Positions 19,961-45,262 of a stretch of 64,000 nucleotides of DNA are shown here, piece by piece (within the stretch, counting starts at the first letter, position 1; each line of letters starts with the position of its first letter). The stretch is from NCBI GenBank assembly GCA_029259415.1, contig JAPDIW010000005.1, forward strand, positions 13,805 through 77,804, read 5' to 3'. The notes beneath the pieces were generated by a model that did no database searches, was not told the origin of the DNA, and saw nothing but the letters and a program-made list of their open reading frames with translations. The position numbers and the translations under genes were made by a program. This DNA comes from Archaeoglobi archaeon. GTDB taxonomy: Archaea; Halobacteriota; Archaeoglobi; Archaeoglobales; Archaeoglobaceae.

Positions 19961-20306
19961 GAAATCAATCCCGAGGGGAATGTATTTAAATGTTGAGGGA
20001 TTTGCAGGCAGGTTAGTAGAGGAGCTCATCACGAAGCTGGCTGAAATTTGGGGGATAAACAAGGACAGTAACCCCGGCCGGATTGATGACGCATGACATC
20101 CGTAGCCCTCCAAACCTCAACATGCATCCGGTTTATTAATTCCTTATACATTCCACATAACCCGTTCTCTGCAACTTCTCCAATCTATTCATCTCTTTAG
20201 CCTCAAAATTCACAAACTCCTTGTCATCCGGTCTGATCTGCCATATACACCCCCAACCGTTCCTTGCCTTTCAACTCCTCATGCAGCGTTGCGCAATGGG
20301 GGGGCG

Positions 20307-20903
20307 TTATTCAACGTTCAACCCATGACCCTCAAGGGGGTCAAGGGAGGGGGGTTGTTCACCTATACTTGATTTCAAGATGTGATCCTCCCACATCACC
20401 TCTGAGAGCCACATCACCTTAACTTTATCCCTACCAAATATGTACTTCTGCCTCTTCATGTTGAGCAGTCCGAGGTCGAAGTGAGCAATGTTGTGACCGA
20501 TAAGGTGCTTGGGATTCTCCCTCAGGAACTCAAAAAACTGAACTATCAGATCCTCCTCGGTTGAGTAAAGATGAAATGCAACCTCAATCCCGTAATTCTT
20601 CAGCTCCTCCTTAATCCTCTCCCTTACCTCTTCATCAACAATGCCGTGAACGAAGAAATGAACCTTTTTGGCCGAGATATCATAAAGCTGGATGCTCCTG
20701 ACCTTCGAGTTCAACCTGTAGCTCTCAATATCGAGAACGTAAGCATCCTGAATCGGAAACCATCTTGAAGCATCCAAAAAACGCTTTGTCTCTATTCTTC
20801 TGTTAAAAGGTAAATCATCCAAACTGATGCCCTGACTCTGACTAAGATCAACCTCAACATCAATATCTCCCTGCCTCGCATTTAAATCAGCCAGGGTCAG
20901 CAT
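20307..20903 (-). pseudogene. N-terminal 3'-5' exonuclease region of a family B-like DNA polymerase, truncated
   Basis: ExoI VLDIES and ExoII LIGHNIAHFDLGLL present; no ExoIII or polymerase motifs downstream in any frame I translated. Confidence 0.7.
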
Positions 20904-20998
20904 ACTTCATACTCTGGATCAACACCGTTCAGCCGGTAAACCGACTTCCAGGAACAGCCCTCGTCATCCGGATCCTCAGAAACATTTTTATAAAATAA

Positions 20999-21022
20999 AA
21001 GCCCCTCAATATTGAGGGGCTT
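20999..21022. repeat. Perfect 24-bp palindrome AAGCCCCTCAATATTGAGGGGCTT (terminator- or cruciform-like)
   Basis: Read directly; followed on the minus strand by TTATTTTAT. Confidence 0.9.
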
Positions 21023-21060
21023 GCAGCTTAACGCTGTGAGTTCCTCCAATGCCTTCCACC

Positions 21061-21339
21061 TCAGTACTCCGCATTGATCCACTGAACCCTCTTTTCTCCC
21101 TTTGTGATGTACTTTGCCGGCACCTTCAGAATCACCTTGCCGTTCCTCTTCTCTCCGTGCTTCAGAGCTGACTGAATTGCCTTCTCGCCGAAGAAACCAA
21201 TCGCATCGATTTCCTCTCCATTGTGCCTCCCGTAGACGACCAATATTTTCTGGCCGTCCTTCTCGGTTGTCTGGGCATCCACCACCTCAATTTCTTCCAA
21301 ACCAAACAGATCTCCGAGTTCCAACCCCATTTCTACCAC
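21061..21339 (-). CDS. 92-aa beta-rich protein, possible ssDNA-binding protein
   Basis: Strong RBS GGAGGTGG; located just upstream of the polymerase fragment; function is inference. Confidence 0.6.
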   Translation of the reverse strand: MVEMGLELGDLFGLEEIEVVDAQTTEKDGQKILVVYGRHNGEEIDAIGFFGEKAIQSALKHGEKRNGKVILKVPAKYITKGEKRVQWINAEY

Positions 21340-21342
21340 CTC

Positions 21343-21492
21343 CTAACTTTCGCTTTTGCTCCCCGCCGGACTTGCACCGGCTGAACCGCTATCTCGGTGG
21401 GGAGCATCCAAATTCCTGGCCCTATTCTTGAGCCACCACTCCCTGAATGCCTCAACAGCCTCACAAAACCGGTCAAGAACGTCGTAATCCAT
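21343..21492 (-). CDS. 49-aa hypothetical protein MDYDVLDRFCEAVEAFREWWLK...
   Basis: Manual translation; RBS GGAGGG; coupled to neighbours. Confidence 0.55.
   Translation of the reverse strand: MDYDVLDRFCEAVEAFREWWLKNRARNLDAPHRDSGSAGASPAGSKSES
21357..21405 (-). ncRNA. Minimal tRNA-like structure (acceptor stem, T-arm, one short hairpin)
   Basis: GCTCCCC-ACCG/AGATAG/CGGT-TCA-GCCGG/TGCAAGT/CCGGC-GGGGAGC-A. Confidence 0.5.
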
Positions 21493-21494
21493 CC

Positions 21495-21659
21495 TCAACC
21501 CTCCTCAAAAATAGAAACAAGCTCTTCAGGCGGGATGTTCTCGACCAAATGCTTCACGTTCTTCAGTATCGTCTTCCTAAGGATCACCGGATCCTTGTTA
21601 AGTTCACGCCCAAGAATCCTCGCCATTCTGCCCAGCTCTGGATACACTACTCTCGGCAT
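21495..21659 (-). CDS. 54-aa small helical protein
   Basis: MPRVVYPELGRMAR...; RBS GGAGG. Confidence 0.55.
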   Translation of the reverse strand: MPRVVYPELGRMARILGRELNKDPVILRKTILKNVKHLVENIPPEELVSIFEEG

Positions 21660-21760
21660 GTCAGCCTCCACCCGCACCTGCTGCATCTCCAGCCCTCTTC
21701 AGTTTCCTCGAGTAAACCACCGCAGGGGCAAAGGCCAGAATCAACGAACTGCTGGAGCAT
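21647..21760 (-). CDS. 37-aa zinc-finger protein
   Basis: MLQQFVDSGLCPCGGLLEETEEGWRCSRCGWRLTCRE; RBS GGAGGG. Confidence 0.65.
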   Translation of the reverse strand: MLQQFVDSGLCPCGGLLEETEEGWRCSRCGWRLTCRE

Positions 21761-21762
21761 GC

Positions 21763-21930
21763 TCAACCCTCCAATTTTTTGACCTCTATTTTATTTTCAC
21801 ATATTTTAATAAGAACCTGCTCTCCACTTTTGAATTCAAGAACTTTCACGAGTGATTTTGGCACATAGATTCTCCCTGAACCTTTTTGATCTATGTGATA
21901 CCTACCTACGCCCACACATAAATCGCTCAT
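21763..21930 (-). CDS. AbrB/SpoVT-like regulator, 55 aa (missing from ORF track)
   Basis: MSDLCVGVGRYHIDQKGSGRIYVPKSLVKVLEFKSGEQVLIKICENKIEVKKLEG; RBS AGGTGA; paralogous to 22044-22226. Confidence 0.8.
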   Translation of the reverse strand: MSDLCVGVGRYHIDQKGSGRIYVPKSLVKVLEFKSGEQVLIKICENKIEVKKLEG

Positions 21931-22040
21931 TCTATCACCTCTGATAGAATTCTACAACCAATCCTATTTAACACTTTCGATAACCTTCGATAACTCTCGA
22001 CAAACAAAACTAGGTTTAAGAACCTTACAACAAATGATAA
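21929..22040. promoter_or_regulatory. Divergent promoter/operator region
   Basis: Inverted repeat ATTCTATCA-cctc-TGATAGAAT at 21929-21950; tandem TTCGATAAC x2 plus TCTCGACAAA at 10-bp period (about 21965-21995). Confidence 0.65.
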
Positions 22041-22043
22041 GTT

Positions 22044-22226
22044 ATGGCCGAAGAAGACAAAAGCATTCTTGTATCGGTTGGGAAGATTCACATCGACTCC
22101 AAAGGAGCTGGACGCATTTATCTCAAAAAGAAAGTAATTGATGCTCTTGAAAAGATTGGAATTCAGCACGGTGATGAACTCAGAATTGAAGTTAAAGACG
22201 GAAAACTCATTATCACTAAACTCTAA
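22044..22226 (+). CDS. AbrB/SpoVT-like regulator, 60 aa
   Basis: VGKIHIDSKGAGRIYLKKKV...GDELRIEVKDGKLIITKL. Confidence 0.8.
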   Translation: MAEEDKSILVSVGKIHIDSKGAGRIYLKKKVIDALEKIGIQHGDELRIEVKDGKLIITKL

Positions 22227-22265
22227 ACCGCAATTTATTTCAAGAACAAAATATACACAGAAACT

Positions 22266-22715
22266 ATGATCTATGCATATTCCTTTGCAATCTTCGCAAT
22301 CTTGGTCATTTTCTCGGGAGTGATCGTTATAGTTACTACCCTCATTCTTAAATTTTCCAAAAATGAGCAGCTCAAAGATCGTATTAAGCCTATTGACTTC
22401 TGGCTTACCAAGACTATGAACTTCTCTTTGTTTATGATGCTTGCTTCCCTCACACTTGCTGCTATCTTCAAAGATCCCCCTGAGATGTTCATCCCTCAAA
22501 ACGTCTGGAACCTCGTTCAGCAACATGAAAGCCTTGGAGTTCTCGCTTTTGTTGTATACCTCTGGCTTACCCTCGACAGAAGACTCACAAAAGTCGAGAC
22601 GCAGATTGCACATATTGACGGAGATGTTGAATCCCTTCGAATTGACTTTAAAGAAGAATTCAAGCAACTTCGTGACGATATTAGACATATGTGGAACAAC
22701 ATCTCTAAGAAATAA
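22266..22715 (+). CDS. Membrane protein, about 3 TM segments plus C-terminal coiled coil
   Basis: Hydrophobic segments; LDRRLTKVETQIAHIDGDVESLR heptads. Confidence 0.7.
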   Translation: MIYAYSFAIFAILVIFSGVIVIVTTLILKFSKNEQLKDRIKPIDFWLTKTMNFSLFMMLASLTLAAIFKDPPEMFIPQNVWNLVQQHESLGVLAFVVYLWLTLDRRLTKVETQIAHIDGDVESLRIDFKEEFKQLRDDIRHMWNNISKK

Positions 22716-22850
22716 CATGCCTAACCTCCTCCGTGCACGTAGCCAGGGACGTGAGCACTCCACCTTTACAGGATCAAAATAGCGGCATCTCCTCGGGTTG
22801 TGTAGCCGGCAACGATAAGGGCTGTAAGGATCAAAGTTACTGCACCTCAT
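22716..22850 (-). CDS. Cys-rich small protein (N-terminus of the 307-aa track ORF); true 3' end uncertain
   Basis: MRCSNFDPYSPYRC...CRYFDPVKVEC internal repeat; coupled TGAATG start. Confidence 0.45.
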
Positions 22851-23183
22851 TCAACCCCTCCGAAAATCGCCGGCCAGCTTTCTCTTAAACTGCACATCCT
22901 CAGCCCTGACGAGCTTGGACATCACTCCTCCATCTTCCGTGAAAACCACGAAGAGGTAAGCCCGTTATTTTCCACAAGATGGTCGTGCTGCTCCCTATCC
23001 AGAGTGAACCTGCCCCTGCACCTCCCGACTCCGTTCCTGTGGCACTCCTGACAGGCTTTGATCTCCACCGGCTTACCGTCAATCTGCCCGTCAACGAGCC
23101 CGTTACTGAGAACTTGCAAGCTCCTCAGCCCTCTGACCGTTCAGGTATGCCCTCTCGTTTCTGACGGTTATCAGATCGCTCAT
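22851..23183 (-). pseudogene. Small PD-(D/E)XK nuclease (Holliday-junction-resolvase-like) with two frameshifts
   Basis: MSDLITVRNERAYLNGQRAEELA / DGQIDGKPVEIKAC...GRFTLDREQHDHL / YLFVVFTEDGGVMSKLVRAE in three successive frames. Confidence 0.7.
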
Positions 23184-23329
23184 TTCATCAGCCCCCTGTA
23201 ACAATCACGGCAGAGAGGGCAGCAACCGAGCCAGACCACCTGATCCTCTGACAACCGCTTACCGCAATAGGCACATTCTACAACTGTGATCCGCCTCTCA
23301 ACGTATTCCTTAAGAGTGATGAAAGGCAT
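23180..23329 (-). CDS. 49-aa zinc-finger protein
   Basis: MPFITLKEYVERRITVVECAYCGKRLSEDQVVWLGCCPLCRDCYRGLMK. Confidence 0.7.
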   Translation of the reverse strand: MPFITLKEYVERRITVVECAYCGKRLSEDQVVWLGCCPLCRDCYRGLMK

Positions 23330-23553
23330 CAGGCATCAGCCTCCTCAAAAACAAGATTTATGCAATCGTATGCGTTTGTCAAATGTTTAATCTTCAATCC
23401 GTGCTTTCTCGCCGTTTTCACGATTTTTCCAAAAGTTTCCTTCGCCAGAACTCCGTGAACTTTGAGATGGTAACTGAACTTTTCGCCATTGACAACTTCA
23501 ATCGAAGACGCCTGCGGCAACTCGTCAAGCAACCTCTTAACATCCTCAAACAT
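23329..23553 (-). CDS. 74-aa hypothetical protein
   Basis: MFEDVKRLL...VFEEADA; TGATG coupling at both ends. Confidence 0.7.
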   Translation of the reverse strand: MFEDVKRLLDELPQASSIEVVNGEKFSYHLKVHGVLAKETFGKIVKTARKHGLKIKHLTNAYDCINLVFEEADA

Positions 23554-23672
23554 CAGGCAACCCTCCACTCCCTGCTGACGAGCTCCCTGAGCTCCCTCAA
23601 CCTCTGCTCCCTCGGCATGCCCCTGAGCTTCGCCTTGAGCTCCTCAACCGTCATCTCCCTGTAGCCGGTCAT
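23553..23672 (-). CDS. 39-aa hypothetical protein
   Basis: MTGYREMTVEELKAKLRGMPREQRLRELRELVSREWRVA; coupled. Confidence 0.6.
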   Translation of the reverse strand: MTGYREMTVEELKAKLRGMPREQRLRELRELVSREWRVA

Positions 23673-24019
23673 TAGGCCTCAGCCTCCTTCAGAATAGCAT
23701 CCTCAACCTTACTCTCAAGCCTCTCAAAATTCATCTCAAGTTCCTCAATTCTATCATCGAGCTCTCTAATTTTCTTTTTCAATTCAGCGATTTTGTTGTG
23801 CAATATTCCGATATCTGAATATAGCATTCCGATTGTATCGTTTGCATCAGCCTCCTCATCAAAACTCAAAAAACCCTGCTCCACCATGTTTTTGACACTC
23901 AACACAAGTTCACGCATGCATCTTGGACAAATCGGATATGCACCATCTATATGCCAGAATGTCTTGGCACCGCAGCCTCTGCAGTTTCCTGGAACTCCGA
24001 ATTTATCGTATAGTGGCAT
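23672..24019 (-). CDS. Zn-finger plus coiled-coil protein
   Basis: CRGC...CPRC followed by heptad repeats. Confidence 0.75.
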   Translation of the reverse strand: MPLYDKFGVPGNCRGCGAKTFWHIDGAYPICPRCMRELVLSVKNMVEQGFLSFDEEADANDTIGMLYSDIGILHNKIAELKKKIRELDDRIEELEMNFERLESKVEDAILKEAEA

Positions 24020-24525
24020 CAGGCATCAGCCTCCTCAAAGAAATCGCTTGAAAGAACTTTCTCGAACTCTCCAGCCCTTATCATCTCGGCCATGCGCTCT
24101 TTGTAGGTCTTCAGCGCCTTGAGCCTTGAAAGAGCTGAATCTCTGTTCTTCTTGAATTCCTCAATTCTCTCTTTTGTCTGGGCGATCATCTCATCGATGT
24201 CGAGAAGCTGGCACATCTTGGCCTTGGAGTCCTCTTCTTCGAGAAGCCTCTTCTTGCGATTTTCGAGATCGGCGAGATATCCTGTATCTTCTTCTATCTC
24301 CCTTTCGTATCTTTCGATTTTTTGTTCTGTATCTGCTATGAGCCTCAGATAATCCCTATACAGATTAAGAGCCTCCTCGATCTGCAGGACCTTGAAGAAG
24401 AGCTGGCCGATTACGGCGTCTGCATCCTCATTCTCGTCGATCGCAACTCTTAGACTGATGCGCTCGTTGTTGTAGTTCTTGAGGTTGAAAAGTCTCGAGT
24501 ACTCTACCTCTCTCACCTTCATCAC
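24019..24525 (-). CDS. Coiled-coil protein, 168 aa
   Basis: E/K/R-rich heptads; coupled start and stop. Confidence 0.75.
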   Translation of the reverse strand: MMKVREVEYSRLFNLKNYNNERISLRVAIDENEDADAVIGQLFFKVLQIEEALNLYRDYLRLIADTEQKIERYEREIEEDTGYLADLENRKKRLLEEEDSKAKMCQLLDIDEMIAQTKERIEEFKKNRDSALSRLKALKTYKERMAEMIRAGEFEKVLSSDFFEEADA

Positions 24526-24698
24526 GCATCACCATCCAAAATCTCCACGTCGGCCCTCCTCAGCTTACTCGGCTCGCCCGTGTAGGGGCAGAACCGCCAG
24601 TAAGCCTCGCAGTCGCACCTGTACGCACAGTGCTGGCAGTTTTGCGGGTCTCTAAAATCCACACTCTCGAATTCCGACGCCCGGACAAAACCGAACAT
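24522..24698 (-). CDS. 58-aa Cys-rich protein
   Basis: MFGFVRASEF...CQHCAYRCDC...CPYTG; RBS GGAGGTGG. Confidence 0.65.
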   Translation of the reverse strand: MFGFVRASEFESVDFRDPQNCQHCAYRCDCEAYWRFCPYTGEPSKLRRADVEILDGDA

Positions 24699-24973
24699 CA
24701 CACACCACCTCCAAAAAATCCCCTCAACCTCTCCTCGTCCGCCTCGTCCAGCACCAGGCCGGCGTGATGCCTGAGGTTCTCCAAGACCTCCTCGGCTGTC
24801 AGGCAGTGCCAGGTCCAGATGGTTCTCCAGCCGCCGTTCCAGCGGCGTTCCAAGAAGTCCACCCTGCATCCCTGCTTGCGTTTGTAGCGGCGGATGCGAA
24901 GCAGTTCGAGGCCGTTCCAGGTGCGGCCGAGGTTCAGGGTCAGTTCCTCATTCCGTTTCGGTTTTGGGGTCAT
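24698..24973 (-). CDS. 91-aa hypothetical protein, first gene of the leftward micro-ORF operon
   Basis: TATA about 40 bp upstream; W/R-rich beta segment weakly recalls PC4-like ssDNA binders (inference). Confidence 0.65.
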   Translation of the reverse strand: MTPKPKRNEELTLNLGRTWNGLELLRIRRYKRKQGCRVDFLERRWNGGWRTIWTWHCLTAEEVLENLRHHAGLVLDEADEERLRGFFGGGV

Positions 24974-25062
24974 GGTTTCAGACCTCTCTTATAGTCCCAT
25001 CTATGAAACTAATGGTATATAAAAGTTCCGAATTAGGGTTCTGGTTTCAAAATTGAAACTAA
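24973..25062. promoter_or_regulatory. Divergent promoter with paired half-sites TGGTTTCA / TGAAACTAA
   Basis: TGGTTTCA at 24973 and 25042; TGAAACTAA at 25004 and 25054; GTTTCAA-aa-TTGAAAC at 25044-25059. Confidence 0.6.
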
Positions 25063-26005
25063 AATTAAAATCAAAAAATTTAAAAGAGATACAGTATAAC
25101 TCTTGCCGAGCTGGTGTCATTATGCCCGAGTGGCTGGATAAATTCGTTAAGGCTACCAAAAAAGCGACCGAGCAGGTGATCGATTCTTCAAAGAAAAAAT
25201 TGAATGAGATGAAATTACTTAGGGAGCTGTCGTTGCTGGAGAAATCCCTTAAAAAGCAAGTTCTGGATAGAATGAGTGATAAAAATCTGGAGAGTATTGT
25301 TAAAAACGAGAAAATTAAGAGTAAAAGTTTACTTATCAAGAAATATAAGAAGGGTAAAATCGACCTCTGGGAATACTTTGACAAGGACGAGTTGACTGAT
25401 TTGCTTGCCGACGAGCTCGACCTCGAAACCGTCCTCTTCTACGCAAAAGAGTTCAGGGTAAAGACCACAGACCTGATCCGCCAGTACAAGGAGAGGAGGA
25501 AGATCGTGATAGCCAGGCTGGCGAAGCTTCGAGATGGTGTCAAGGACTACGGGTCGCAGGATTATGAGGAATACTCCTTCACACCCGATTTGCTCGATGA
25601 GGTGTTGAGTGTCATAAAATCAGAATTTGAGCCGGAGCCGCCCATTATCAACGAGATGGACCTCGAAAAGCAGTTGTCCCTGTTCTTAAAGATGAAGGGG
25701 TACCAGTTCAAGAGGCAGTACAGTCCGGACGGTAAATACAAGGTTGACATCGTTTTTAACGGTGAGATGGGTGTCGAACTGAAGATAGCCGATGATCCGA
25801 GAAGATTGCTGAGCTGCCAAGCCAGGTGAAGCTGTACAAAAAGTGGCTGAGGGATTGTGCTGCCGTAATAGCCGTCCCTTACGGTGTCGATGAGAGCAGG
25901 TTGAGAGATTACTTCGAGCTGCTTGATGAGGAGGGGATCAGGTACATCGTAATCCGCATACCTTACCGGGCTTAAAACTTAAAAAAATTAAAATCAAAAA
26001 ATTTA
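25061..26005 (+). repeat. 22-bp direct repeat AAAATTAAAATCAAAAAATTTA flanking the nuclease gene
   Basis: Copies at 25061-25082 and 25984-26005. Confidence 0.85.
25122..25975 (+). pseudogene. Helical N-terminus plus PD-(D/E)XK nuclease, one frameshift near 25802
   Basis: KVDIVFNGEMGVELK, then in a shifted frame IAELPSQVKLYKKW...IRYIVIRIPYRA (QxxxY motif). Confidence 0.75.
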
Positions 26006-26072
26006 TTATTGGCTGCATTTGAGATAACAAGGTAAACCCTAAAAATGGCTTGAGATTAAAAAGTAGGCGTAG

Positions 26073-26795
26073 GTGATAAAGTTGCCAAGGTCGGCTACAC
26101 TGCTACGGATAGATCCTGAGGTAGTTGAGAGCGTTTTAAGTGTGTTTAAGAGCGTTGGAGAAGAAATCCCATATCAAGACGATTTAGCCATATTTATCAA
26201 GTCGTTTGAGGAATTTGATCAGTACTACATGGGACATATTCTGATCGACCTAGTGGACGAAGTAATGGTCAAAAAAAGAGTGGGTGGTGAGATCAGAGCT
26301 GAGCCTCAGAGTGTTCCTAGATGTGAGGAAGTCAAGTTTGCGTACTTTCCGAGGATCTCGGGGAGTGCTGAAATATCACACGTGACCGTCGTACTCGGTC
26401 GTGAAACCGTTGCCAGACTATTGGCGACGGTCATTGAAAGAATAGTTGGGCGTAGAGCTTTTTTGAAAGTGCGCTTCTCCTTCACACCCTCCAACGAGGC
26501 TGCTATCAGGAACAGCTTTGATGACATCGTGAGAATTCGCGGTGAAGATGTGGTTGACGCTGTAATTTCAGGAATATCGATCAAAGGAAGCAGAATCTAT
26601 CAGGCCTCTCCGGAATACCAGAAGGCCCTAAGCGGCGAGATTAAGCAAATCGGAGTGGCGTTGGGAGATGAGTGGTTTATCGTAGCTAGTTCGGGAAGGA
26701 TAACAACCTACAAAAGACTGTCGGATGAAGAGTTTATTGAGAGGGTTCGCCAAATCATTACGCGCTTTTTAAGGGCTGGGGCCGTAATCTTGTAA
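26073..26795 (+). CDS. 240-aa hypothetical protein
   Basis: Intact ORF with its own promoter; family not recognised with certainty. Confidence 0.75.
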   Translation: MIKLPRSATLLRIDPEVVESVLSVFKSVGEEIPYQDDLAIFIKSFEEFDQYYMGHILIDLVDEVMVKKRVGGEIRAEPQSVPRCEEVKFAYFPRISGSAEISHVTVVLGRETVARLLATVIERIVGRRAFLKVRFSFTPSNEAAIRNSFDDIVRIRGEDVVDAVISGISIKGSRIYQASPEYQKALSGEIKQIGVALGDEWFIVASSGRITTYKRLSDEEFIERVRQIITRFLRAGAVIL

Positions 26796-26799
26796 TTTT

Positions 26800-27501: not shown

Positions 27502-27856
27502 ATTACATTAGAGTTTTAGTGGTAGAAGTAAAAGTAATTTTTGGTGTTGGATTATATCCACTTCTCATCTCGCCCAGTATACCTCCTCAGGTTCGGTCAG
27601 CAGAGTAGTGGAACCCCCGGAATACGGTCAACAAGGTGTCGGAGGTAATAGCCCGAAAGGCTGTAAAATCTCGAAAGAAAGGCTGTAATGGGATTTTCTC
27701 TCCTTTAATAGAATATCTTCTTAAAAGAGATCTACTAAGAATAGGGTTCACATAAAATATAGAATAGCCAAAATTTATTTTTTGCCTTGGATCGTAATGG
27801 TTTGTGATAGGTCGATAATATTATCTCAAACTTATGAAAATAGACGATAGAACAGG

Positions 27857-37833: not shown

Positions 37834-39228
37834 CTACTCACCTCCCTCCTGCCTCCAGACGACAAACTTCAAAACTCCAGCAAGAACCGCCAAACCCACC
37901 AAAATCTGAGCCCAAGGCTCGTTCAGGTACTCGTACCAGCTTCTCTCCTCCGACAGGTTGAGGTTAAGGGCGTTGTTGATTGCCTTGACAGCGTTGATCT
38001 GCCCGTACTCGACCTTATCATCCGGATCGCTTATCTCGTCCGTGCTCAGCTTGATCAGCGTCTCTGCTTGGCTAGGCGTGATGCCCTTCTCAGCTTCAAC
38101 CAACAAGAGGACACCAGCAATGTGAGGAGCTGCAAAGCTCGTTCCGTCTCCGGAGTACAGGTTTCCGTCCGACGACAGCACCGGAACTTGAACGCCGGGA
38201 GCTGCTACCAAAGCCCCGCCGTTGCTGAATGAAGCGACGCTTCCGTAAATGTCCGTCGCAGCGACAGAGATGACGGTATCGTAGGCCGCAGGGTAGAGCG
38301 ATGTAGCTCCTCCCGAGTTTCCGGAGGCTGCCACAAGGATGACGCTCTTGCCGTACAGCAGATCACAGAGGGTTTCAAGCTCTGGTGGGGCTAAGTCAGC
38401 TCCCAGGCTCATCGACACGACATCTATCCTCTCACCAGCGTTCACTTTATCGAGAACCCACTCCAGGCCTGCTATTACGTCGCTCCAGTTCCCCTCGCCG
38501 TTATCGTTCAGAACCTTGAGGGCATAATAGCCGGCAGAGGGAGCCACGCCCGTATACTTGTCCTCTCCCTCCGCCAGGATTATCGAAGTGCACTCGGTGC
38601 CGTGGCCGTAAACGTCGTCCGGCTCCGCGTCGCCGTAGGCGAAGTCGTAGCCTCCGAGGTAGCCGTCGTCGAGGTCTGGCAGGTTGTGATTGACGCCTGT
38701 ATCCAGAACTGCCACAACTGCACCTTTGCCGGTGAAGTTCGATCTGTGGGCGATATCTGCCTTTATCGCTTCGAGATTCCAGCCCAGATCCTGAACTACG
38801 GGCTTAATCGGGATCTGGGAGAGGGTATCAGCGAAGCCTACCGCCCTGACCCTCTGGTCGTAAAGAACCTTCTGAACCCTCGGGTTTTCGAGCAACTTTT
38901 GGAGTTCCTTATAGTCCCCCTCCACGACGGCCCAGTTCGCATACTTGCCAGCCTTGATGACCTTGAATCCCTGCCTTTCCAGCTCAGTAGCATTAACGCC
39001 GCTCACGAACATTCTAACCGGCTTCTTGGGATTCGTGGCGAACTTCTGCTGCAGAACTGGGTCGAGCTTCTGGTTCTTGACTTCCTCCTGTTCTATCTTT
39101 TCCTCAAGCCACTTCCCGAAATCCGGTACGTGGATGAGCGGCGGGTCTGCGATGTAGGCCGCGTAAACGAATGCCGCAAGTCCGAGGGCTGCGATTGCAA
39201 TTCCGAGGAGCTTGAGATCGTCGCCCAT
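37834..39228 (-). CDS. Subtilisin-like S8 serine protease with N-terminal anchor, prodomain and C-terminal TM
   Basis: Triad motifs VAVLDTG, YGHGTEC, GTSFAAPH; oxyanion AASGN. Confidence 0.95.
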   Translation of the reverse strand: MGDDLKLLGIAIAALGLAAFVYAAYIADPPLIHVPDFGKWLEEKIEQEEVKNQKLDPVLQQKFATNPKKPVRMFVSGVNATELERQGFKVIKAGKYANWAVVEGDYKELQKLLENPRVQKVLYDQRVRAVGFADTLSQIPIKPVVQDLGWNLEAIKADIAHRSNFTGKGAVVAVLDTGVNHNLPDLDDGYLGGYDFAYGDAEPDDVYGHGTECTSIILAEGEDKYTGVAPSAGYYALKVLNDNGEGNWSDVIAGLEWVLDKVNAGERIDVVSMSLGADLAPPELETLCDLLYGKSVILVAASGNSGGATSLYPAAYDTVISVAATDIYGSVASFSNGGALVAAPGVQVPVLSSDGNLYSGDGTSFAAPHIAGVLLLVEAEKGITPSQAETLIKLSTDEISDPDDKVEYGQINAVKAINNALNLNLSEERSWYEYLNEPWAQILVGLAVLAGVLKFVVWRQEGGE

Positions 39229-39229
39229 C

Positions 39230-39478
39230 TCACAACCTCCCGAGAATCAGATTCCAGATCGGGTTGAAGATCAGGTAGCCGGTTAGCCACCAGATGAGCA
39301 TGTAGAAGCAGATATGGGCAGCCACACCCACTATGGTCTCGCTCTCGGACCAAGCGTGCTTGGCTGACTTCCACATGGCCAGCAAGAAGAAGATGAGCGA
39401 GAGTGGGCTCAGGCCGGTGATTATCTGAAGCTGCGTGAAGAGGTTGACGATGCTGCTGAAGAGGTCGGCAACGGTCAC
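39230..39478 (-). CDS. 82-aa membrane protein
   Basis: GTG start overlapping the upstream stop; 2 TM. Confidence 0.65.
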   Translation of the reverse strand: MTVADLFSSIVNLFTQLQIITGLSPLSLIFFLLAMWKSAKHAWSESETIVGVAAHICFYMLIWWLTGYLIFNPIWNLILGRL

Positions 39479-39654
39479 TCTCTCATCCCCCTGATCACAT
39501 CGATGAAGACTCCAGCCCCGGCGGCGAGGGCCGCGTAGTTCAGCGCCTGGTTCATGAACCACTTAGTGAACTCCTCGTAGCCGAACTCCTTGATGTAAAC
39601 GAGGCAGAGGCAGACGAAAAGGCAGAGACCGAGGAACGTGAACGTGGGCTTCAT
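39475..39654 (-). CDS. 59-aa membrane protein
   Basis: MKPTFTFLGLCLF...; RBS GGAGG. Confidence 0.65.
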   Translation of the reverse strand: MKPTFTFLGLCLFVCLCLVYIKEFGYEEFTKWFMNQALNYAALAAGAGVFIDVIRGMRE

Positions 39655-39986: not shown

Positions 39987-40508
39987 TTAGAGGATGACTC
40001 TGATGATCCCCATGCCCACCTTTATTCCGACCGCCACCCCCACAGGGATTATCAGAATCCCCCAGAGGAGCGTATCGACGAGCAGGTTGTTGAACAGCGG
40101 CGGGCAGCTCTGCTTCACGAAGAGGAAGTATCCTGCCACATAGCTCATGTAGCCCTCGTAGCCCGTGACGTTGAGTGTTATGGTGTCCGTTGCGGGGGAG
40201 GTTTCTATCGTGATTGTGCCCGAAGACTTGTCCACGTGGAAATATGCGTTATCCTCTCCCTTGTTGACTCCGTCAACGAGGATTGAGTAGCCTGTGCCAT
40301 CGGCAACCCTCACGAAGATTGTATCGCCGTAGTGGACTTCAACATCTGTGAAGTTGGTCGTGTAGCTCCCTTCCAAGCCAAAAAGCCCTCCGTTGCACAC
40401 TTCGAGGGTTGCGGCTGTGGCGTTGACAATGGCTGCCGTGCTGACTGGAATCCATGCGAGCATTAGAAAAATAAGGAGTTTTAAAGCTCTCATTCCAGCC
40501 CTGTTCAT
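39987..40508 (-). CDS. Secreted protein with C-terminal TM
   Basis: Signal peptide ending STA-A; beta-rich domain; TM. Confidence 0.75.
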   Translation of the reverse strand: MNRAGMRALKLLIFLMLAWIPVSTAAIVNATAATLEVCNGGLFGLEGSYTTNFTDVEVHYGDTIFVRVADGTGYSILVDGVNKGEDNAYFHVDKSSGTITIETSPATDTITLNVTGYEGYMSYVAGYFLFVKQSCPPLFNNLLVDTLLWGILIIPVGVAVGIKVGMGIIRVIL

Positions 40509-43333
40509 AGTACCACCCTTATCAGCGTCAGCACCAGGCTCACTACGATGAGTCCGCCTATGAGCAGTATGAACGCCCACAGAATGCTGTCTATCGCTTG
40601 GTTACCGAGAATCGGATAAGCAGTTGCGAGCTGTCCGAGAAATCCGCCGAACCCCGTGGTGGTGCCGACCTTCACGGTAATCTCGTTCTCAACAGTCTCC
40701 CCGGTGGCCGAGACTGCTGTAACGTTGTACACCCCCGCCTCGTCGAACGTGTAGCGTGCGGGATCCTTGACGAAGGTTGCAGTCTTGTTTCCGTTGATGT
40801 ACAGCTCTCCTCCCTCTGCGACGACTTTCCCGTTCTGCAGGATGGCGAACTCCACCTCGGAGCCAACTGGTAAGGCGACATCGCCGAACTGCCAGCTCTT
40901 GAACCACTCGTCTATGCTGTCCCAAGCCCAGTAGAGCCCGTAGCCCATTCCTGCTCCTATCGCGGCTCCGGGGATTGCTCCGATTCCTCCGCCGAGAATT
41001 GCTCCGATTACTGCTCCTATTCCAGCTCCAAGTCCGGTTGAACCCATCGTGTTCTCGCTGCTCTGCTCTGGCACTTTAACGAGCTTCCAGCTGAGGAGGT
41101 AGCTGTTCGGGTCGACGACCTCTATGTAGGCTATGTCCGTCAAGCCGTTGTACTCCGCCCTGAGCGTGTAGTTGCCCGGGTCAACGAAGTCGTAGTCCAG
41201 CCAGGCCCCGAAGAACCAGCCCCTCGTCTCGCCAATCATCTCCCCGTTAAGATATATCGGCACGTCAGCCAGCTCGGCTCCGTGCTCGTTCACGACGCTG
41301 ATTTTGCGTTTTCCAACCCACACAACCTGCCCGTCTGCATCGCTTCCGTCTATCCTCAGCTCTATCCTTGTTGTTGTGAGGTCTTCACCCCCATCGTCGT
41401 CCAGGTCTCCTGATGGCTTGAGGTAGACCGTAAGCTCGGTGTCAGCAGAGAACTGCCTGTCCTCAATCAGCTTGTTGCTGTAGTCTCCTGATGGGTCGGA
41501 CACATGGATGGTGTAGCTAACTCCCGAATCCACCGTCAGAACTGCTGTACCATCCTCCCTGGTCACCTTCTGCTCCACGACAGAGCCGCCCTTCAGCAGC
41601 GAGACCACCACACCCGGGATGGATTTCTCCGAGTGCTCGTCGAGAACCCTGACCGTGAGGGTGAGGCTCCCGCCGTCCTTGTCAAACTCGTCTACATCGC
41701 TGTAGACGTAAACAGTCCCAGTTCCGGTGCGGAGCACTCCTGAAGAGGTGGTTATCTCCGCATAGACCTCGTGCAACCCCACATTGTTGAAGGGATAAGT
41801 AAGTTCGGGGTCGGCATCCCCTATCCTTTCTCCATCGACAAGTATGACACTCCTCACAGCCTCCTTCTGCACCCCGTTGCAGACCTTGACTGTCTTGAAT
41901 GTGACCTTGCCCCCTACCTTGACGGACTGAGGGGAATAGATGAGCGTGTACTGGCATCCGTCCTCATCCGGCTCGGTTCTCGGGTAGTCACCGTCATCCG
42001 CTCCCCCGTTGACGTCGTAGGTCTCGTTCAGAATCGTAACGTTTGTTGCCCTGGAGAGCTCGTCACCGATTTTGGCGTAGACGTAGTGCTCACCTGCAGA
42101 GTCGACTCTGATTACCGCCTGCGGAACGTCTGGGTTAACGAGGTCGTCAAAGAAGTCGAAGAAACCCCAGTCGTCTGGGTCTTTGGTTTTAACTCCTGTT
42201 GATTGCCCGTCAACGTATATCTCAGCCCCCTCAATCCACTCTGGGTCGAGAGGATTCCACCATGCCTTCTGTGTGTTCTTGACCTTGACGATTATCGGCT
42301 CGTTGACCTTGGCTGTGTACTTGTCCAGAATGCAGATGTACTTGCTGTCGGGGTTGCCGTAATCTCCAGGCTGTTCTGGCTGCTCCTCAGGGATTTCCTC
42401 AACCGTTATCACTCCCACCTGGGTGTCGTTGTAGTAAATCTCCACGTACCTGGGAAACTCTGCTACCTCGGCAGCGAGGGAGTGCTCTGGTTCTGGTGTG
42501 CTGTACAAAACATCTCCGCTCTCGCTCTTAACCACAAACTTGAACTTCTTCCCAGACTCCTGAGACAGATAGACCCAATATGTACCCCCTAAATCTCTGA
42601 CCGAACCGTTGAAGGTCACAGAGTTCATTGAGGTGTAAACCTTGACGCTTGCGTGGTCTGGGATTGCTGGGGAGCTTCCGCTGCTTTGCGAAAGTGATAT
42701 TGATACTAAGCTGAGAGTATCCTTGACTATCGTTTTGTCGTTGTAAATATCGCCTATAAACTCACTGTACCACTGCACGATAGGTGTCCCCCAACTCGTG
42801 TACCCGACAATCCTGTACTCCTTAGCCCTTACAGTTATCGAGTCATCTGCAACTTTACTCCAGTCCACGTCAAAATAAATGTCCATCGTGCACGGTTCAA
42901 ATCCAACGTAAATCGTCGCTGTGCCGATTTGCGTTTTATCCGAACCCGTAACCACCCTTCCGTCCAACACCCAGGGCCCAGTAACATATTCTAAACTCGA
43001 TGTGCCGGCACCCAGTTCTGCCCTATAAACTTTATGTTTGCATGAGCTGGCTGGATAGATTATTTCCAGCTTGCTGATTTTTCTGCCAGCCAATCCACTT
43101 ATCGTAATCGCATTCTTCTCTACTATCCCATAATTCCAGCCTGTAAACTCTATATGCCTCTCAGTCGTTGACGAACTCGTGTTGGCCTCGAAGATTCTCT
43201 CGTAAACGTCCCCAGGGAGGTAAACCGTCTTGCTTATCTCTACAGTCGTTAGAGCGTCAACTTCTTGTGCCGACGCTGGAACTGCCGTCAGTGCAATAGC
43301 CACTATGCAAAAAAAGAGAAGAAAACGCTTCAC
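40505..43333 (-). CDS. 942-aa surface/spike-like protein with signal peptide, repeated Ig/PEGA-like domains, glycine zipper and C-terminal TM
   Basis: PASA signal cleavage; IYVDG, ILVDG, IYLNG, LYING repeats; many NxT/S sequons. Confidence 0.85.
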   Translation of the reverse strand: MKRFLLFFCIVAIALTAVPASAQEVDALTTVEISKTVYLPGDVYERIFEANTSSSTTERHIEFTGWNYGIVEKNAITISGLAGRKISKLEIIYPASSCKHKVYRAELGAGTSSLEYVTGPWVLDGRVVTGSDKTQIGTATIYVGFEPCTMDIYFDVDWSKVADDSITVRAKEYRIVGYTSWGTPIVQWYSEFIGDIYNDKTIVKDTLSLVSISLSQSSGSSPAIPDHASVKVYTSMNSVTFNGSVRDLGGTYWVYLSQESGKKFKFVVKSESGDVLYSTPEPEHSLAAEVAEFPRYVEIYYNDTQVGVITVEEIPEEQPEQPGDYGNPDSKYICILDKYTAKVNEPIIVKVKNTQKAWWNPLDPEWIEGAEIYVDGQSTGVKTKDPDDWGFFDFFDDLVNPDVPQAVIRVDSAGEHYVYAKIGDELSRATNVTILNETYDVNGGADDGDYPRTEPDEDGCQYTLIYSPQSVKVGGKVTFKTVKVCNGVQKEAVRSVILVDGERIGDADPELTYPFNNVGLHEVYAEITTSSGVLRTGTGTVYVYSDVDEFDKDGGSLTLTVRVLDEHSEKSIPGVVVSLLKGGSVVEQKVTREDGTAVLTVDSGVSYTIHVSDPSGDYSNKLIEDRQFSADTELTVYLKPSGDLDDDGGEDLTTTRIELRIDGSDADGQVVWVGKRKISVVNEHGAELADVPIYLNGEMIGETRGWFFGAWLDYDFVDPGNYTLRAEYNGLTDIAYIEVVDPNSYLLSWKLVKVPEQSSENTMGSTGLGAGIGAVIGAILGGGIGAIPGAAIGAGMGYGLYWAWDSIDEWFKSWQFGDVALPVGSEVEFAILQNGKVVAEGGELYINGNKTATFVKDPARYTFDEAGVYNVTAVSATGETVENEITVKVGTTTGFGGFLGQLATAYPILGNQAIDSILWAFILLIGGLIVVSLVLTLIRVVL

Positions 43334-43352
43334 AGCTCCTCGCCTCCCGCTG

Positions 43353-43748
43353 TTAGCTGGCGGACTCGTTGAACAGGAAGGTCAGGGTTGCTATCGTGTC
43401 CTTCGTGATGGTTACGTTCTTTGCGAGGGTGACTGAGTTCCACTCAGCCTGCACCTGATAGTCACCCACATCTACATCGCTGAAGTAGGCCGTGCCGTTT
43501 TCATCAGTTTGCTTGAGCAGCTCGGTCGACAGGATGCTGACGGTCACGTTGGCGAGCGGGACATCGTCGGTCGTATCGGCCGTCTGCATGGCATCGTAGC
43601 ATAGGACTTTGAGGTCGCCCTTGTCGGCGAACCAAGGGATGCGGTCGGCTGTCTGCTCCCACCAGCCGAGGTAATAGCCGACGCCAGCTATGATCAGCAG
43701 AACGCCGAAACCGGCAATCGCAACCTGCTTGAGCTCCATCCCCATCAC
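43353..43748 (-). CDS. TM-anchored carboxypeptidase-regulatory-like beta-sandwich protein
   Basis: PLANVTV...TDENGTAYFSDVDVGDYQV. Confidence 0.8.
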   Translation of the reverse strand: MMGMELKQVAIAGFGVLLIIAGVGYYLGWWEQTADRIPWFADKGDLKVLCYDAMQTADTTDDVPLANVTVSILSTELLKQTDENGTAYFSDVDVGDYQVQAEWNSVTLAKNVTITKDTIATLTFLFNESAS

Positions 43749-43749
43749 C

Positions 43750-44328
43750 TCACCTCAGTCCCTTTGCCCCCAGAACCGCTATACCGACGCCGAGCAGGAA
43801 CAGCAGCACCGGGAAGAACGCCTCCAACTCGTTGTCGTAGCTAATGGTAGCCAGCGGTGCCGCAACGCTCAGAGCAGCGAGGTTCTTGGCTTCGACGCCG
43901 TAAGCCGTTGCGCTGGCAGAAGTGAACGGGTAGACTTCGACACCGCCGATCAGCTCGATCTCCTTCCCCTTGAAGTCCTCGACCACGTAGCCGGGAATTA
44001 CCTCTTTTATCGTCTTGTCGTCGGTTATGTCGTAGATCGTGCACGTCACGCCACTGCCCGTCTTCATCGCATCGCAACCCTTAACCCAGTCCGGACTGAT
44101 CGAGAAGTAGCTCGGCTTGATAACTATCCTCGCCGAGATCGGATAGGACGTCTTCGGGTCCAGCTTGATCGTCACGTAGTTGAGGTCGTTGACCTCTACC
44201 GGGTCGCTCTGCGTTACGGTTACCGAAAGGGCCGTGTTGCTCTGCGTCACCACTCCAGCACTCGCCGGAACCGCAGCCGCAACGACCAGCACAACCAGCA
44301 CTCCCAAAATCCAACCGGTCTTCACCAA
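43750..44328 (-). CDS. Signal peptide plus C-terminal TM protein, candidate major envelope protein
   Basis: VPASA cleavage site; second gene of the operon; strong RBS GAGGTGA. Confidence 0.8.
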   Translation of the reverse strand: MVKTGWILGVLVVLVVAAAVPASAGVVTQSNTALSVTVTQSDPVEVNDLNYVTIKLDPKTSYPISARIVIKPSYFSISPDWVKGCDAMKTGSGVTCTIYDITDDKTIKEVIPGYVVEDFKGKEIELIGGVEVYPFTSASATAYGVEAKNLAALSVAAPLATISYDNELEAFFPVLLFLLGVGIAVLGAKGLR

Positions 44329-44334
44329 ACAACA

Positions 44335-44523
44335 TCACCTCGCCTTCTTTTTCTTCCTACCTCCACTATTCCCCTTCCTACCTCCTCCACTCTTCCCTTT
44401 CCTCTTCCTCCGCTTCCTGAGTTCGCTCATCGGCACCTCAACTACCTGCATGGTGCCTCCGGGCCCCTTCTTGAAGTGGTAGCCCATCCCCTTCTTCTTC
44501 CTAAACTGCGCGACCACTCCCAA
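44335..44523 (-). CDS. 62-aa highly basic protein, candidate nucleoprotein
   Basis: K/R/G-rich; TTG start after GAGGTGA. Confidence 0.7.
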   Translation of the reverse strand: MGVVAQFRKKKGMGYHFKKGPGGTMQVVEVPMSELRKRRKRKGKSGGGRKGNSGGRKKKKAR

Positions 44524-44547
44524 CCGGTCTCACCTCTGCAACTTTTC

Positions 44548-44652
44548 CGGGCCGGGGGATGGTGGCGGCGGGGTAGCTAACCGAAAAAACAAAAAAGTCC
44601 AACCCGTCTCCGCAAGGCAACCAGTCTCGCATGCTATCCCCGGCCCGTTTCA
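44548..44652 (-). ncRNA. Structured 5' leader of the structural operon with an internal U-tract
   Basis: CGGGCCGGGGAT...ATCCCCCGGCCCG closing stem; TTTTTTGTTTTTT inside; TATA at 44675-44682. Confidence 0.55.
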
Positions 44653-44674
44653 GTAAATAATGTGATAAAAGGAG

Positions 44675-44906
44675 TATATAAAATATGTAACTTTGTCCCC
44701 TATTTTTTGATGATGATTAATCCTGCCCTTGTGTCCACATCTATCTCCAAATAGTCTCCTTCACTCCATCCTAAGAGCTTCAAAACCGCGCTCGGTATAG
44801 TTACGCTTAGACTGTTTCCGGTCCGTTTCAACTTTACTTTTAATTTGTTAGCACTCATGTTTTACTTTTGTTCTAACGAGTATAAGAACAGTAAAGCTTT
44901 GTCCCC
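44675..44906 (-). promoter_or_regulatory. Two promoters sharing GGGGACAAAG-N8-TATA
   Basis: Motif at 44691-44700 and 44897-44906, each 8 nt from TTTATATA or TTCTTATA. Confidence 0.7.
44700..44858 (-). CDS. AbrB/MazE/SpoVT-like regulator, 52 aa (missing from ORF track)
   Basis: MSANKLKVKLKRTGNSLSVTIPSAVLKLLGWSEGDYLEIDVDTRAGLIIIKK. Confidence 0.88.
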   Translation of the reverse strand: MSANKLKVKLKRTGNSLSVTIPSAVLKLLGWSEGDYLEIDVDTRAGLIIIKK

Positions 44907-45262
44907 GAAAAATTTAAGCCGTGCACCTAACTCATGACTTTATGCACGGTCCGGGCCCTCTTATTTCGAGTTCTAATCCCTCTCGTAACTTTCAGCACGG
45001 CATCGAATTTTATAAACCCTTCGTTTAGTTTTTTCTGACTGATGTTTGGTTATAGCAAAGCGAGATTGTTTGTGATGTAGAGGCCGTCAGAAGGGAGATT
45101 GAGAGCACTGAAGAGCTACAAAACTTCACCAATTACCAGAAATTGCAGTGGAGAAGGGACCAGTATGAAAAACGAAGATTTTAGAATGAATAAACATGCT
45201 AATTAACTTTTCGATAATTCTTTTTCAGTAAATAATTTAAAATAGAAGCTGCATTATCAAAC

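Follow-up and report, generated by a model that had tools for sequence, protein, structure and literature searches.

Within a 64,000-nt stretch of an Archaeoglobi archaeon genome (contig JAPDIW010000005.1, positions 13,805 to 77,804; hereafter the window), a ~25-kb island without housekeeping genes lies between the genes for eIF2-gamma and an M28 peptidase. By analogy with known systems, we interpret this island as an integrated, immobilised mosaic element that would form particles or vesicles, and we give this reading a probability of roughly 55%. The backbone would be that of a temperate pleomorphic virus of Archaeoglobi, with a regulatory switch and small early genes as in GacPV1, GahPV1, ThalV2 and AvPV1, and an unrelated module of 19 genes would have been swapped in for the VP3/VP4/NTPase genes of those viruses. 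The interpretation draws on direct observations, namely gene content, synteny, conservation, purifying selection and shared early genes, and on structure models in which the ATPase of the module adopts a HerA fold and its spike a beta-sandwich chain.

The island is flanked by the following host genes.

18737-19960, minus strand: eIF2-gamma, the left host gene
45263-46414, plus strand: M28 peptidase, the right host gene
46710-47339: MBL hydrolase, a host gene further right

The host is an Archaeoglobus near A. fulgidus: both eIF2-gamma and the MBL hydrolase fall into 90%-identity clusters with proteins of strain DSM 4304, in line with the Archaeoglobus-like host proposed in a preliminary description made from the DNA letters. 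The limits given there, 20300-44950, prove correct to within a few hundred bases, as similarity to related elements stops between 44916 and 44953 on the right, and a metagenome strain in run X3 departs from the window at ~20.1 kb on the left. We counted ~46 open reading frames (ORFs) in the island, where about 45 non-housekeeping ORFs had been estimated; ~26 lie in 20.3-32.0 kb, 19 form an operon, and one, an AbrB-like gene, lies upstream of it. The G+C content is 0.50-0.57 across 31-45 kb compared with ~0.45 in the host flanks. The A. fulgidus DSM 4304 homologues of eIF2-gamma and the MBL hydrolase carry GenBank accessions AAB90649 and AAB90665, which are 16 apart; because of this spacing, ~15 genes may lie at the same locus in that strain, which would point to a recurrent island site.

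The right half of the island is occupied by a single operon of 19 minus-strand genes running from 44523 to 32155 (12.4 kb). Its junctions mostly measure -4 to +19 nt, ATGA-type overlaps are frequent and a Shine-Dalgarno sequence precedes every gene, so that the coupled 12-kb operon of the preliminary description is upheld. All 19 genes are intact, and the ratio of nonsynonymous to synonymous substitution rates (dN/dS) against three relatives is 0.03-0.23, with dS near saturation. Because every gene falls in this range, the operon genes are real and under selection, and purifying selection acts on the late operon as a conserved module. Predicted transmembrane (TM) or signal segments occur in 13 of its proteins, somewhat above the ten or so first proposed. 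The genes are listed below in order of transcription, with protein lengths in amino acids (aa).

44335-44523, minus strand: gene 1, a 62-aa basic protein of pI 12; conserved core '...PMSELRK.R', K/R-rich tail
43750-44328, minus strand: 192-aa protein carrying a signal peptide and anchored by a C-terminal TM segment; 43-69% identity to syntenic homologues, dN/dS 0.19
43353-43748, minus strand: 131-aa N-terminally anchored protein with a CarboxypepD_reg (prealbumin-like) domain (Pfam E 4e-6, under the curated cut-off); syntenic homologues
40505-43333, minus strand: 942-aa spike/adhesin with a signal peptide, a variable N-terminal region of ~320 aa, a predicted beta-sandwich chain and a C-terminal TM anchor
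39987-40508, minus strand: 173-aa protein with hydrophobic ends, whose start overlaps the stop of the spike gene (ATGA); homologues at 27-78% identity
39651-39974, minus strand: 107-aa three-TM protein, DUF5658 (Pfam E 2.6e-9, over the cut-off)
39475-39654, minus strand: 59-aa single-TM protein, dN/dS 0.12-0.15
39230-39478, minus strand: 82-aa two-TM protein; equal-length 249-nt ORF in relatives, dN/dS 0.16
37834-39228, minus strand: 464-aa S8 subtilase with N- and C-terminal TM segments (Pfam E 2.5e-41), dN/dS 0.06
36153-37833, minus strand: four small proteins of 131 aa (three TM), 85 aa (coiled coil), 208 aa and 145 aa
35264-36163, minus strand: 299-aa protein, TM-anchored at its N-terminus, with a charged coiled coil and a globular domain of predicted cytoplasmic location
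34728-35267, minus strand: 179-aa protein with a C-terminal MarR-type winged helix (Pfam MarR E 8.8e-5, under the cut-off); syntenic in relatives
33474-34724, minus strand: 416-aa HerA-type ATPase (Pfam DUF87) with an N-terminal beta-barrel and a RecA-like core and no TM segment
32155-33456, minus strand: operon tail encoding a 97-aa basic protein, a 227-aa TM protein and a 142-aa DUF772-like helix-turn-helix (HTH) protein

The HerA-like ATPase, the subtilase, the basic protein and the multi-Ig (immunoglobulin-like) spike named in the preliminary description all stand. The model of the ATPase (predicted local distance difference test score, pLDDT, of 81) shows the full HerA fold, with the HerA proteins of T. 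kodakarensis and S. solfataricus as best PDB matches over barrel and core (E 1e-15 to 1e-13, TM-score ~0.6); A32-type and other viral ATPases come far lower than HerA in the structure ranking, and the P-loop gives a sub-threshold terminase match (E 0.0017). In the S8 subtilase, the catalytic Asp/His/Ser context is intact (LDTG, HGTE, GTSFAAPH), and the gene is found at every syntenic locus. The spike model has a pLDDT of 50 overall, with values of 70-85 for residues 324-753 only; this region is modelled as a chain of beta-sandwiches, for which Foldseek returns titin, DSCAM and complement C3 MG domains. A glycine-zipper TM region occupies residues 760-798. Homologues match only the C-terminal 61-70% of the spike, as expected for a receptor-binding tip on a conserved stalk.

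Among the remaining products, the 62-aa protein is a candidate DNA-condensing protein; a homologous small basic ORF is the first operon gene in the related loci L001, L009, L017 and L021 (dN/dS 0.06). An ORF of 180 nt, equal in length to the 59-aa gene, is present in L001, L002, L016, L017, L022 and L026, and the 82-aa two-TM protein is a candidate major membrane or structural protein. The four small proteins between the protease and the 299-aa gene have syntenic homologues (dN/dS 0.05-0.17); the 208-aa protein combines TM segments at both ends with a coiled coil, and the 145-aa protein has an acidic N-terminus and two TM segments. The 299-aa protein is the most conserved product after the ATPase, with 82-93% identity in close and 35-62% in distant relatives (dN/dS 0.03-0.05). 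By the positive-inside rule the bulk of it is placed in the cytoplasm, and we consider it a candidate membrane tether for the ATPase. The 97-aa gene follows the ATPase even at the distant loci L005, L012 and L024.

The left half of the island provides the link to the viruses of this host class. Thalassapleoviridae, relatives of Pleolipoviridae, are the only described viruses of Archaeoglobi and occur in the same habitat (PMC10919331); AvPV1, ApPV1, GacPV1, GahPV1 and ThalV2 were compared. The corresponding features of the window are given below.

30401-32015, minus strand: three genes encoding proteins of 92, 81 and 324 aa
28701-30409, both strands: divergent regulatory junction comprising the three genes that follow
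28990-29310, plus strand: 106-aa winged helix-turn-helix (wHTH) protein, GacPV1 gp15-like (E 1.5e-14)
28701-28886, minus strand: 61-aa gp16-like gene
29325-30409, plus strand: PDC-M30A candidate defence gene, frameshifted, with two overlapping ORFs that match its N- and C-terminal halves
23330-28700: variable cassettes with no homologue in relatives
20307-23329, minus strand: block of small co-directional ORFs collinear with GacPV1 gp18-gp21 (tblastn, 50-67% identity, E 1e-7 to 5e-20)

Eight to nine non-structural genes of this half are homologous to those of Thalassapleoviridae and keep the order and orientation of the GacPV1 map. Read along the minus strand from 32583 to 21343, they comprise the 142-aa gene of the operon tail (AvPV1 gp15, E 1e-13), the 92-aa gene (GacPV1 gp09, also GahPV1 gp23 and ThalV2 gp09; phmmer E 2.8e-17), the wHTH gene on the opposite strand (gp15) and the 61-aa gene (gp16), then, after 5.4 kb of unrelated cassettes, a 49-aa gene (gp18), a 307-aa ORF whose first 39 residues match the GacPV1 stretch between gp18 and gp19, and genes of 39 aa (gp19), 63 aa (gp20; 67% identity, E 5e-20) and 51 aa (gp21). 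Beyond them come 92-aa and 61-aa ORFs and a 198-aa DEDD exonuclease in the Rep position of the Geoglobus viruses. The GacPV1 map has gp09 after the VP3/VP4/NTPase block and Rep after gp23. Because the gp09-like gene follows the HerA operon and the GacPV1 order is kept, the operon sits where Thalassapleoviridae have VP3, VP4 and the NTPase, i.e., in the morphogenetic-module slot of a thalassapleovirus-type backbone. The division into an early and a late half proposed for a mobile element is thus recovered, with the left genes collinear with a pleomorphic-virus non-structural block and the late operon conserved.

The resemblance does not extend to the late genes. The module of the window comprises 12.4 kb and 19 genes compared with ~5 kb and 5-6 genes in Thalassapleoviridae, and a full 416-aa HerA protein compared with an NTPase of 300-366 aa. 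No operon protein gave a blastp or phmmer match to thalassapleovirus core proteins, including VP4 of AvPV1, ApPV1 and GacPV1. When 18 operon families were compared by hhalign with the NTPase, VP3, VP4, the second spike of AvPV1, the small protein and the ORF6-like protein, probabilities stayed at 12% or lower, with only Walker A aligned. For VP4, hhalign probability was at most 1.5%, and HRPV-6 VP4 (6QGL) was absent from the top 50 PDB matches of the spike model (residues 324-753). The late operon is thus non-homologous by profile and structure comparison, and on sequence and model evidence membership of Thalassapleoviridae is effectively excluded. Thalassapleoviridae also have Rep, in whose place the window carries the exonuclease-domain gene. 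This gene (20307-20903; Pfam DNA_pol_B_exo1 E 1.1e-6) had been taken for a PolB-like gene, which does not hold, as it encodes a 3'-5' exonuclease domain only and no polymerase; a casposon or PolB replicon, considered as an identity for the island, is ruled out on the same ground.

To place the module among known elements, its ATPase was searched in 5.8 billion clustered proteins, which yielded 18 relatives, all named ones from Archaeoglobi metagenome-assembled genomes (MAGs). An exhaustive profile search of 1.84 billion representatives returned two full-length clusters at 50% identity, with the next match at E 9e-11 and no close relative outside Archaeoglobi. At least 10 distinct loci, from Archaeoglobus sp. 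UBA230, other Archaeoglobaceae MAGs and hydrothermal-vent or sediment metagenomes, are syntenic with the operon from the 192-aa protein through the genes after the ATPase, and the 59-aa, 82-aa and small basic first genes recur in relatives at equal lengths. Pattern-based scans of IMG/VR with three core genes found no relative of the module, tblastn against INPHARED, which does include archaeal viruses, gave nothing relevant, PHROGs returned for the operon proteins only the protease family and sub-threshold noise, and PLSDB gave only three bacterial plasmid matches at E ~1. The operon is apparently the conserved core of an undescribed family of integrative elements of Archaeoglobi.

The family as a whole is mobile, as judged from its genes, because relatives carry a tRNA-adjacent integrase and some also Orc1/Cdc6. 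In relatives, the module ends beside a tyrosine integrase of ~400 aa that abuts tRNA-Phe, -Met, -Asn or -Arg; in one lineage (L021/L025) the integrase lies just upstream of the AbrB-like gene instead. Orc1/Cdc6 is encoded in L001, L026 and L040, and L026 additionally has genes for a serine recombinase and an AAA ATPase. Closest to the window is L040, whose ATPase is 97% identical and which shows 88% nucleotide identity across 3.9 kb; the similarity ends at ~32548, and Orc1/Cdc6 and the integrase lie beyond. The family integrases (L040 14196-15386, L029 160-1248, L032 124-1248) are 32% identical to those of GacPV1 and ThalV2 (E 3e-65), so by sequence comparison the HerA-module elements and thalassapleoviruses have a common integration module, although the window itself is without an integrase. 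In L021/L025, the BREX gene brxL and a 727-aa ORF directly follow the module (15113-17588), and this element may carry, or may have landed beside, a defence system. The search for complete copies in other Archaeoglobi, as recommended in the preliminary description, yielded syntenic loci and integrase-bearing relatives; none of them joins the late module to the early genes within 10 kb, and the left half of the window shares nothing with the relatives' loci.

The layout of the operon is strikingly similar to that of the pT26-2 core, with which it was compared by published description only. The pT26-2 family (pT26-2, TKV2, TKV3, TGV1 and pMEFER01) comprises integrative elements of 17-38 kb from vent hyperthermophiles, with conserved and variable regions (PMC2926602, PMC6972569). 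Its core consists of ~12 co-directional genes, nine with TM helices, including small membrane proteins, a large protein that combines hydrophobic ends with a CarboxypepD_reg domain, and a TM and coiled-coil protein directly upstream of a HerA/VirB4-like ATPase of ~430 aa, which is followed by a protein of ~230 aa (PMC2926602, PMC6972569). Seven genes of the family (t26-5p, 6p, 7p, 11p, 13p, 14p and 15p) count as core genes. A DNA-transfer function was proposed for the core and its likeness to pR1SE remarked; beyond the family no homologues were reported, and the reported members come solely from Thermococcales and Methanococcales (PMC2926602, PMC6972569). In the window, a wHTH gene separates the coiled-coil protein from the ATPase, whereas the two genes are adjacent in pT26-2. 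The HerA-module elements also differ in adding the S8 protease, the wHTH gene and the small basic proteins, and in combining Archaeoglobi hosts with an intact Phage_integrase of ~400 aa, where most pT26-2 elements have an SSV-type suicidal integrase that is split on integration. A search of the PDB with the spike-family profile found no chain, and so gave no match to t26-6p, whose structure is reported as solved in the literature.

A second point of comparison is offered by pR1SE-type elements (apHPVs), which spread in self-encoded vesicles that contain an S8 protease; their core lacks a capsid gene and includes several membrane proteins, a HerA/VirB4/packaging-type ATPase and secreted proteins of large size that are Ig or S-layer-like (PMC10818511). 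The window shares the set of S8 protease, HerA-type ATPase and membrane or secreted proteins, a functional resemblance drawn from descriptions only, and by this analogy pR1SE vesicles are the best functional analogue of the S8 and HerA combination. In contrast to the window, pR1SE-type elements have haloarchaeal hosts, are larger and carry these genes in two clusters. The combination of genes in the operon had been held unprecedented, a view that must be withdrawn given the pairing of S8 protease and HerA/VirB4-like ATPase in pR1SE (PMC10818511) and the similar layout in pT26-2 (PMC2926602, PMC6972569).

A more distant homologue of the ATPase was detected in a Thermococci MAG (L033; hhalign 96.8% over 302 columns). 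In its contig (positions 1-13582) this ATPase gene belongs to a tightly coupled, TM-rich operon that also encodes eight polytopic membrane proteins of small size and two large anchored proteins (1146 and 788 aa), the larger of which gives a match of 89.5% to the spike family; a type IV CRISPR-Cas locus (Csf1, a RAMP protein and Csf3) comes directly after the operon. We take the L033 operon to be part of a further, probably plasmid-like and unclassified, element that carries an analogous module. Because its ATPase homologue sits in an analogous operon, sequence comparison suggests a wider assemblage of such modules among vent Euryarchaeota.

Spindle-shaped viruses such as SSV1 and His1 resemble the window in having small one- or two-TM hydrophobic proteins, a large terminal or adhesion protein and an AbrB/CopG-type regulator, and the small basic protein of the window parallels SSV1 VP2, which has a DNA-binding role. 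The DUF5658 family of the 107-aa protein is also assigned in RefSeq to an SSV1 gene (L038 7122-7430), and His1 gp13 (L039 4383-4682; three TM segments, 'E.NP' motif) aligns weakly with it (hhalign 31%). However, the window has neither a DnaA-like ATPase nor an SSV-type integrase, and spindle viruses in turn lack both an S8 protease and a HerA ATPase. Pfam and PHROGs searches of the island proteins turned up no terminase, no portal and no HK97, jelly-roll (single or double) or fusellovirus capsid family, as the preliminary description had stated. The 59-aa and 82-aa ORFs do have the size and topology of spindle-virus capsid proteins; their hhalign probabilities against SSV1 VP1 and VP3 and His1 VP21 are at most 4.5%, in a class of short TM proteins that compare poorly, and PHROGs gave no match. 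A spindle-type capsid gene in the operon is therefore unrecognised rather than excluded.

On this basis, we propose how the element could have worked. The operon would be transcribed from a single promoter through a long conserved leader, and its membrane proteins and beta-sandwich spike would be inserted in a patch of the cytoplasmic membrane, where the membrane-anchored S8 protease could mature membrane proteins or the spike at the outer face. The 299-aa tether and the wHTH protein would recruit the DNA of the element and the soluble HerA-type hexamer to this patch; small basic proteins would condense the DNA, and the ATPase would pump it into a budding membrane-bound particle, either a pleomorphic virion or a plasmid vesicle, with the variable spike tip selecting the recipient. 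We infer particle formation, the roles of the individual proteins and the joint working of both halves as one replicon from the comparisons above. We hold only tentatively, with the balance somewhat against it, that the module defines a new Archaeoglobi family of viruses or 'infectious vesicles', equipped with about a dozen membrane proteins, its own subtilase and tethered HerA loading, and interchangeable with VP3/VP4/NTPase.

Several results weigh against the proposal of a particle- or vesicle-forming mosaic. No capsid or fusogen homologue was identified, about half of the spike model is unreliable, and no particle has been seen; nothing distinguishes a virus from a plasmid-like element. No RNA run was found to contain the stretch. 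Searches of the window found no integrase, Orc1/Cdc6 or M48 peptidase remnant (tblastn with the integrases of four relatives) and no recognisable replication initiator, and tblastx of the border regions was empty; at the island borders there is no tRNA or Rfam match and no direct or inverted repeat of at least 9 nt joining them. Contig depth of the operon compares with that of the host flanks in vent metagenomes (three were used), at 35-40 against 42 in X1 and 28.5 against 30.5 in X3. No episome or excision junction was seen, and none of the fetched contigs was circular or terminally repeated; neither the window nor the loci contain a match to the loose contig ends from the metagenomes. Because integrase, Orc1/Cdc6, att repeats and a tRNA target are missing and copy number is chromosomal, the window copy is, on present sequence evidence, probably immobilised. 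In no relative are thalassapleovirus-like early genes attached to the late module within 10 kb, and the chimera could for this reason be two decayed adjacent elements. The undescribed lineage of enveloped viruses initially proposed thus stands in part: the lineage is apparently undescribed and its layout provirus-like, but particles and a viral nature are unsupported and the copy is probably immobilised.

The function proposed for the pT26-2 core offers one alternative, in which the module would be an apparatus of an integrated plasmid for cell-to-cell transfer of DNA or proteins, by a conjugation-like or secretion process, with spike and surface proteins providing mating-pair contact and HerA pumping DNA through a membrane channel. 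A HerA/FtsK-type ATPase with a membrane-tethered partner upstream, as in t26-13p/t26-14p (PMC2926602), polytopic membrane proteins numerous enough to form a channel, the missing capsid gene, the plasmid-like Orc1/Cdc6 of relatives and the empty IMG/VR search would all suit such an apparatus. However, the operon proteins include no VirB4, VirD4, relaxase, VirB6/VirB8-like or pilin Pfam family, and the ATPase is structurally closest to HerA and not to VirB4 or TrwB, so that the HerA-type ATPase is the only hallmark shared with a conjugative type IV secretion system. The module also occupies the virion-module slot of a virus-like backbone, and its basic first gene, variable spike tip and dedicated protease suit particles better; we therefore regard a transfer apparatus as unlikely, if worth keeping in view.

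Much the same standing, that of an improbable but serious contender, is given to the possibility that the island is a recombination or integration hotspot holding debris of at least two elements together with defence cassettes: a HerA-module element minus Orc1/Cdc6 and integrase, and a thalassapleovirus minus its structural genes, integrase and Rep, with an operon perhaps co-opted by the host for surface adhesion or vesicles. This would account for the missing integrase, att repeats and tRNA, for the difference in G+C content between the halves and for the presence of Orc1/Cdc6 and integrase in L040 where the left half of the window starts. It also fits the strong polymorphism of the left half (20.3-23.0 kb missing in X3, cassette joints, frameshifted PDC-M30A) and the finding that integrated pT26-2 elements without replication genes still retain core genes (PMC6972569). 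Against debris, the operon genes are intact, and the shared genes on both sides of the junction reproduce one virus map, which is unexpected for two random fragments. Far less probable than either is the reading that the element belongs to Thalassapleoviridae or Pleolipoviridae as a divergent form, in which VP3, VP4 and NTPase are no longer recognisable. The non-structural genes and integrase family held in common with thalassapleoviruses, and the same host class and habitat (PMC10919331), agree with it, yet the core proteins gave no blastp or phmmer match and at most 12% in hhalign (Walker A only), 19 genes with a full HerA stand against 5-6 with a 300-366-aa NTPase, and the confident spike region consists of beta-sandwich beads instead of the V-shaped VP4 fold.

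Upstream of the operon, two further features were identified.

44700-44858, minus strand: 52-aa AbrB/MazE (SpoVT)-type regulator upstream of the operon promoter (Pfam MazE_antitoxin E 7.4e-12)
44524-44690, minus strand: TATA-like promoter and conserved non-coding leader of ~130 nt

The AbrB-like gene has a 70%-identical homologue at the same position in L021/L025, adjoining the integrase. The leader is conserved in L001:150-320, L009:320-480, L017:120-285 and L021:780-920. It has a closing stem (GGGCCGGGGAT...ATCCCCCGGCCC) that seems to covary, and inside it a hairpin that, with the U-tracts after it, resembles an archaeal terminator. The motif AGACNGGTTG, found in the Shine-Dalgarno/start region of several operon genes, has two extra, decoy-like copies inside the leader; it occurs 5 times in the window compared with 0.49 expected, and 4 of the 5 copies lie within 44312-44627. 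The leader could act as an attenuator or a translational-control operator. As a structured RNA it has a fold energy no better than that of shuffled sequences, and the five sequences are too few for covariation. A 15-nt repeat at 20167 and 44534 was rejected as an att site, since one copy falls within the conserved leader and not at a border.

The variable cassettes of the left half comprise three coiled-coil ORFs, a nuclease-like 258-aa ORF and ORFs of 240, 233 and 285 aa without a family match. A 25-nt repeat, GGCATCAGGCATCAGCCTCCTCAAA, marks the junctions of the three consecutive coiled-coil ORFs (79, 115 and 168 aa; 23325-24039). Contig joints at 23345->24017 and 23350->24508 point to recombination among the copies of this repeat. 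Across the cassette region, metagenome contigs also show alternative joints, some of them skipping cassettes, and excess depth. The strain in run X3 is without 20.3-23.0 kb, its junction (23327) lies inside the 25-nt repeat, and its host flanks and remaining island are at normal depth. PDC-M30A is likewise variable among strains, with a 16-nt insertion at 29934 in one and a clean joint 29310->30403 that deletes the gene in another. As this frameshifted gene is the single PADLOC candidate, the left half as a whole was rejected as a defence island. A perfect 22-nt repeat, AAAATTAAAATCAAAAAATTTA, is located at 25061-25082, at the start of the nuclease-like gene (25053-25829), and downstream at 25984-26005, and a related AT-rich motif precedes the next plus-strand genes at 28959-28979; the repeat represents either a shared promoter or cassette ends. 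The 324-aa protein of the 30401-32015 block is a radical-SAM protein that resembles spore-photoproduct lyase (Pfam SPL E 7e-18). In runs X1, X3 and X4, short segments within 27500-33500 reach 1.5-3 times the depth of the operon and host flanks; they include the radical-SAM gene (30403-31812) and the operon tail (32224-33473), and contig ends there lead into unrelated sequence. The over-deep segments are thus in circulation among further elements of these communities.

So far, AvPV1 and its relatives are the only virus lineage described from Archaeoglobi as a class; what the pT26-2 core does has been an open question since 2010, and transfer in pR1SE-type vesicles is documented for haloarchaea only. 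The HerA-module family brings a pT26-2/pR1SE-like combination of membrane proteins and HerA to a third lineage. It also offers a defined and testable set of genes (spike, S8 protease, membrane tether, wHTH and HerA) in a genus, Archaeoglobus, that can be cultured. The placement of the module in the virion-module slot of a pleomorphic-virus backbone provides comparative evidence for a role in particle formation or DNA export, and equally for the exchange of such modules between viruses and 'plasmids' of hyperthermophiles. If true, interchangeability of the module would tie the pT26-2 and pR1SE 'plasmids' to pleomorphic viruses at the level of mechanism.

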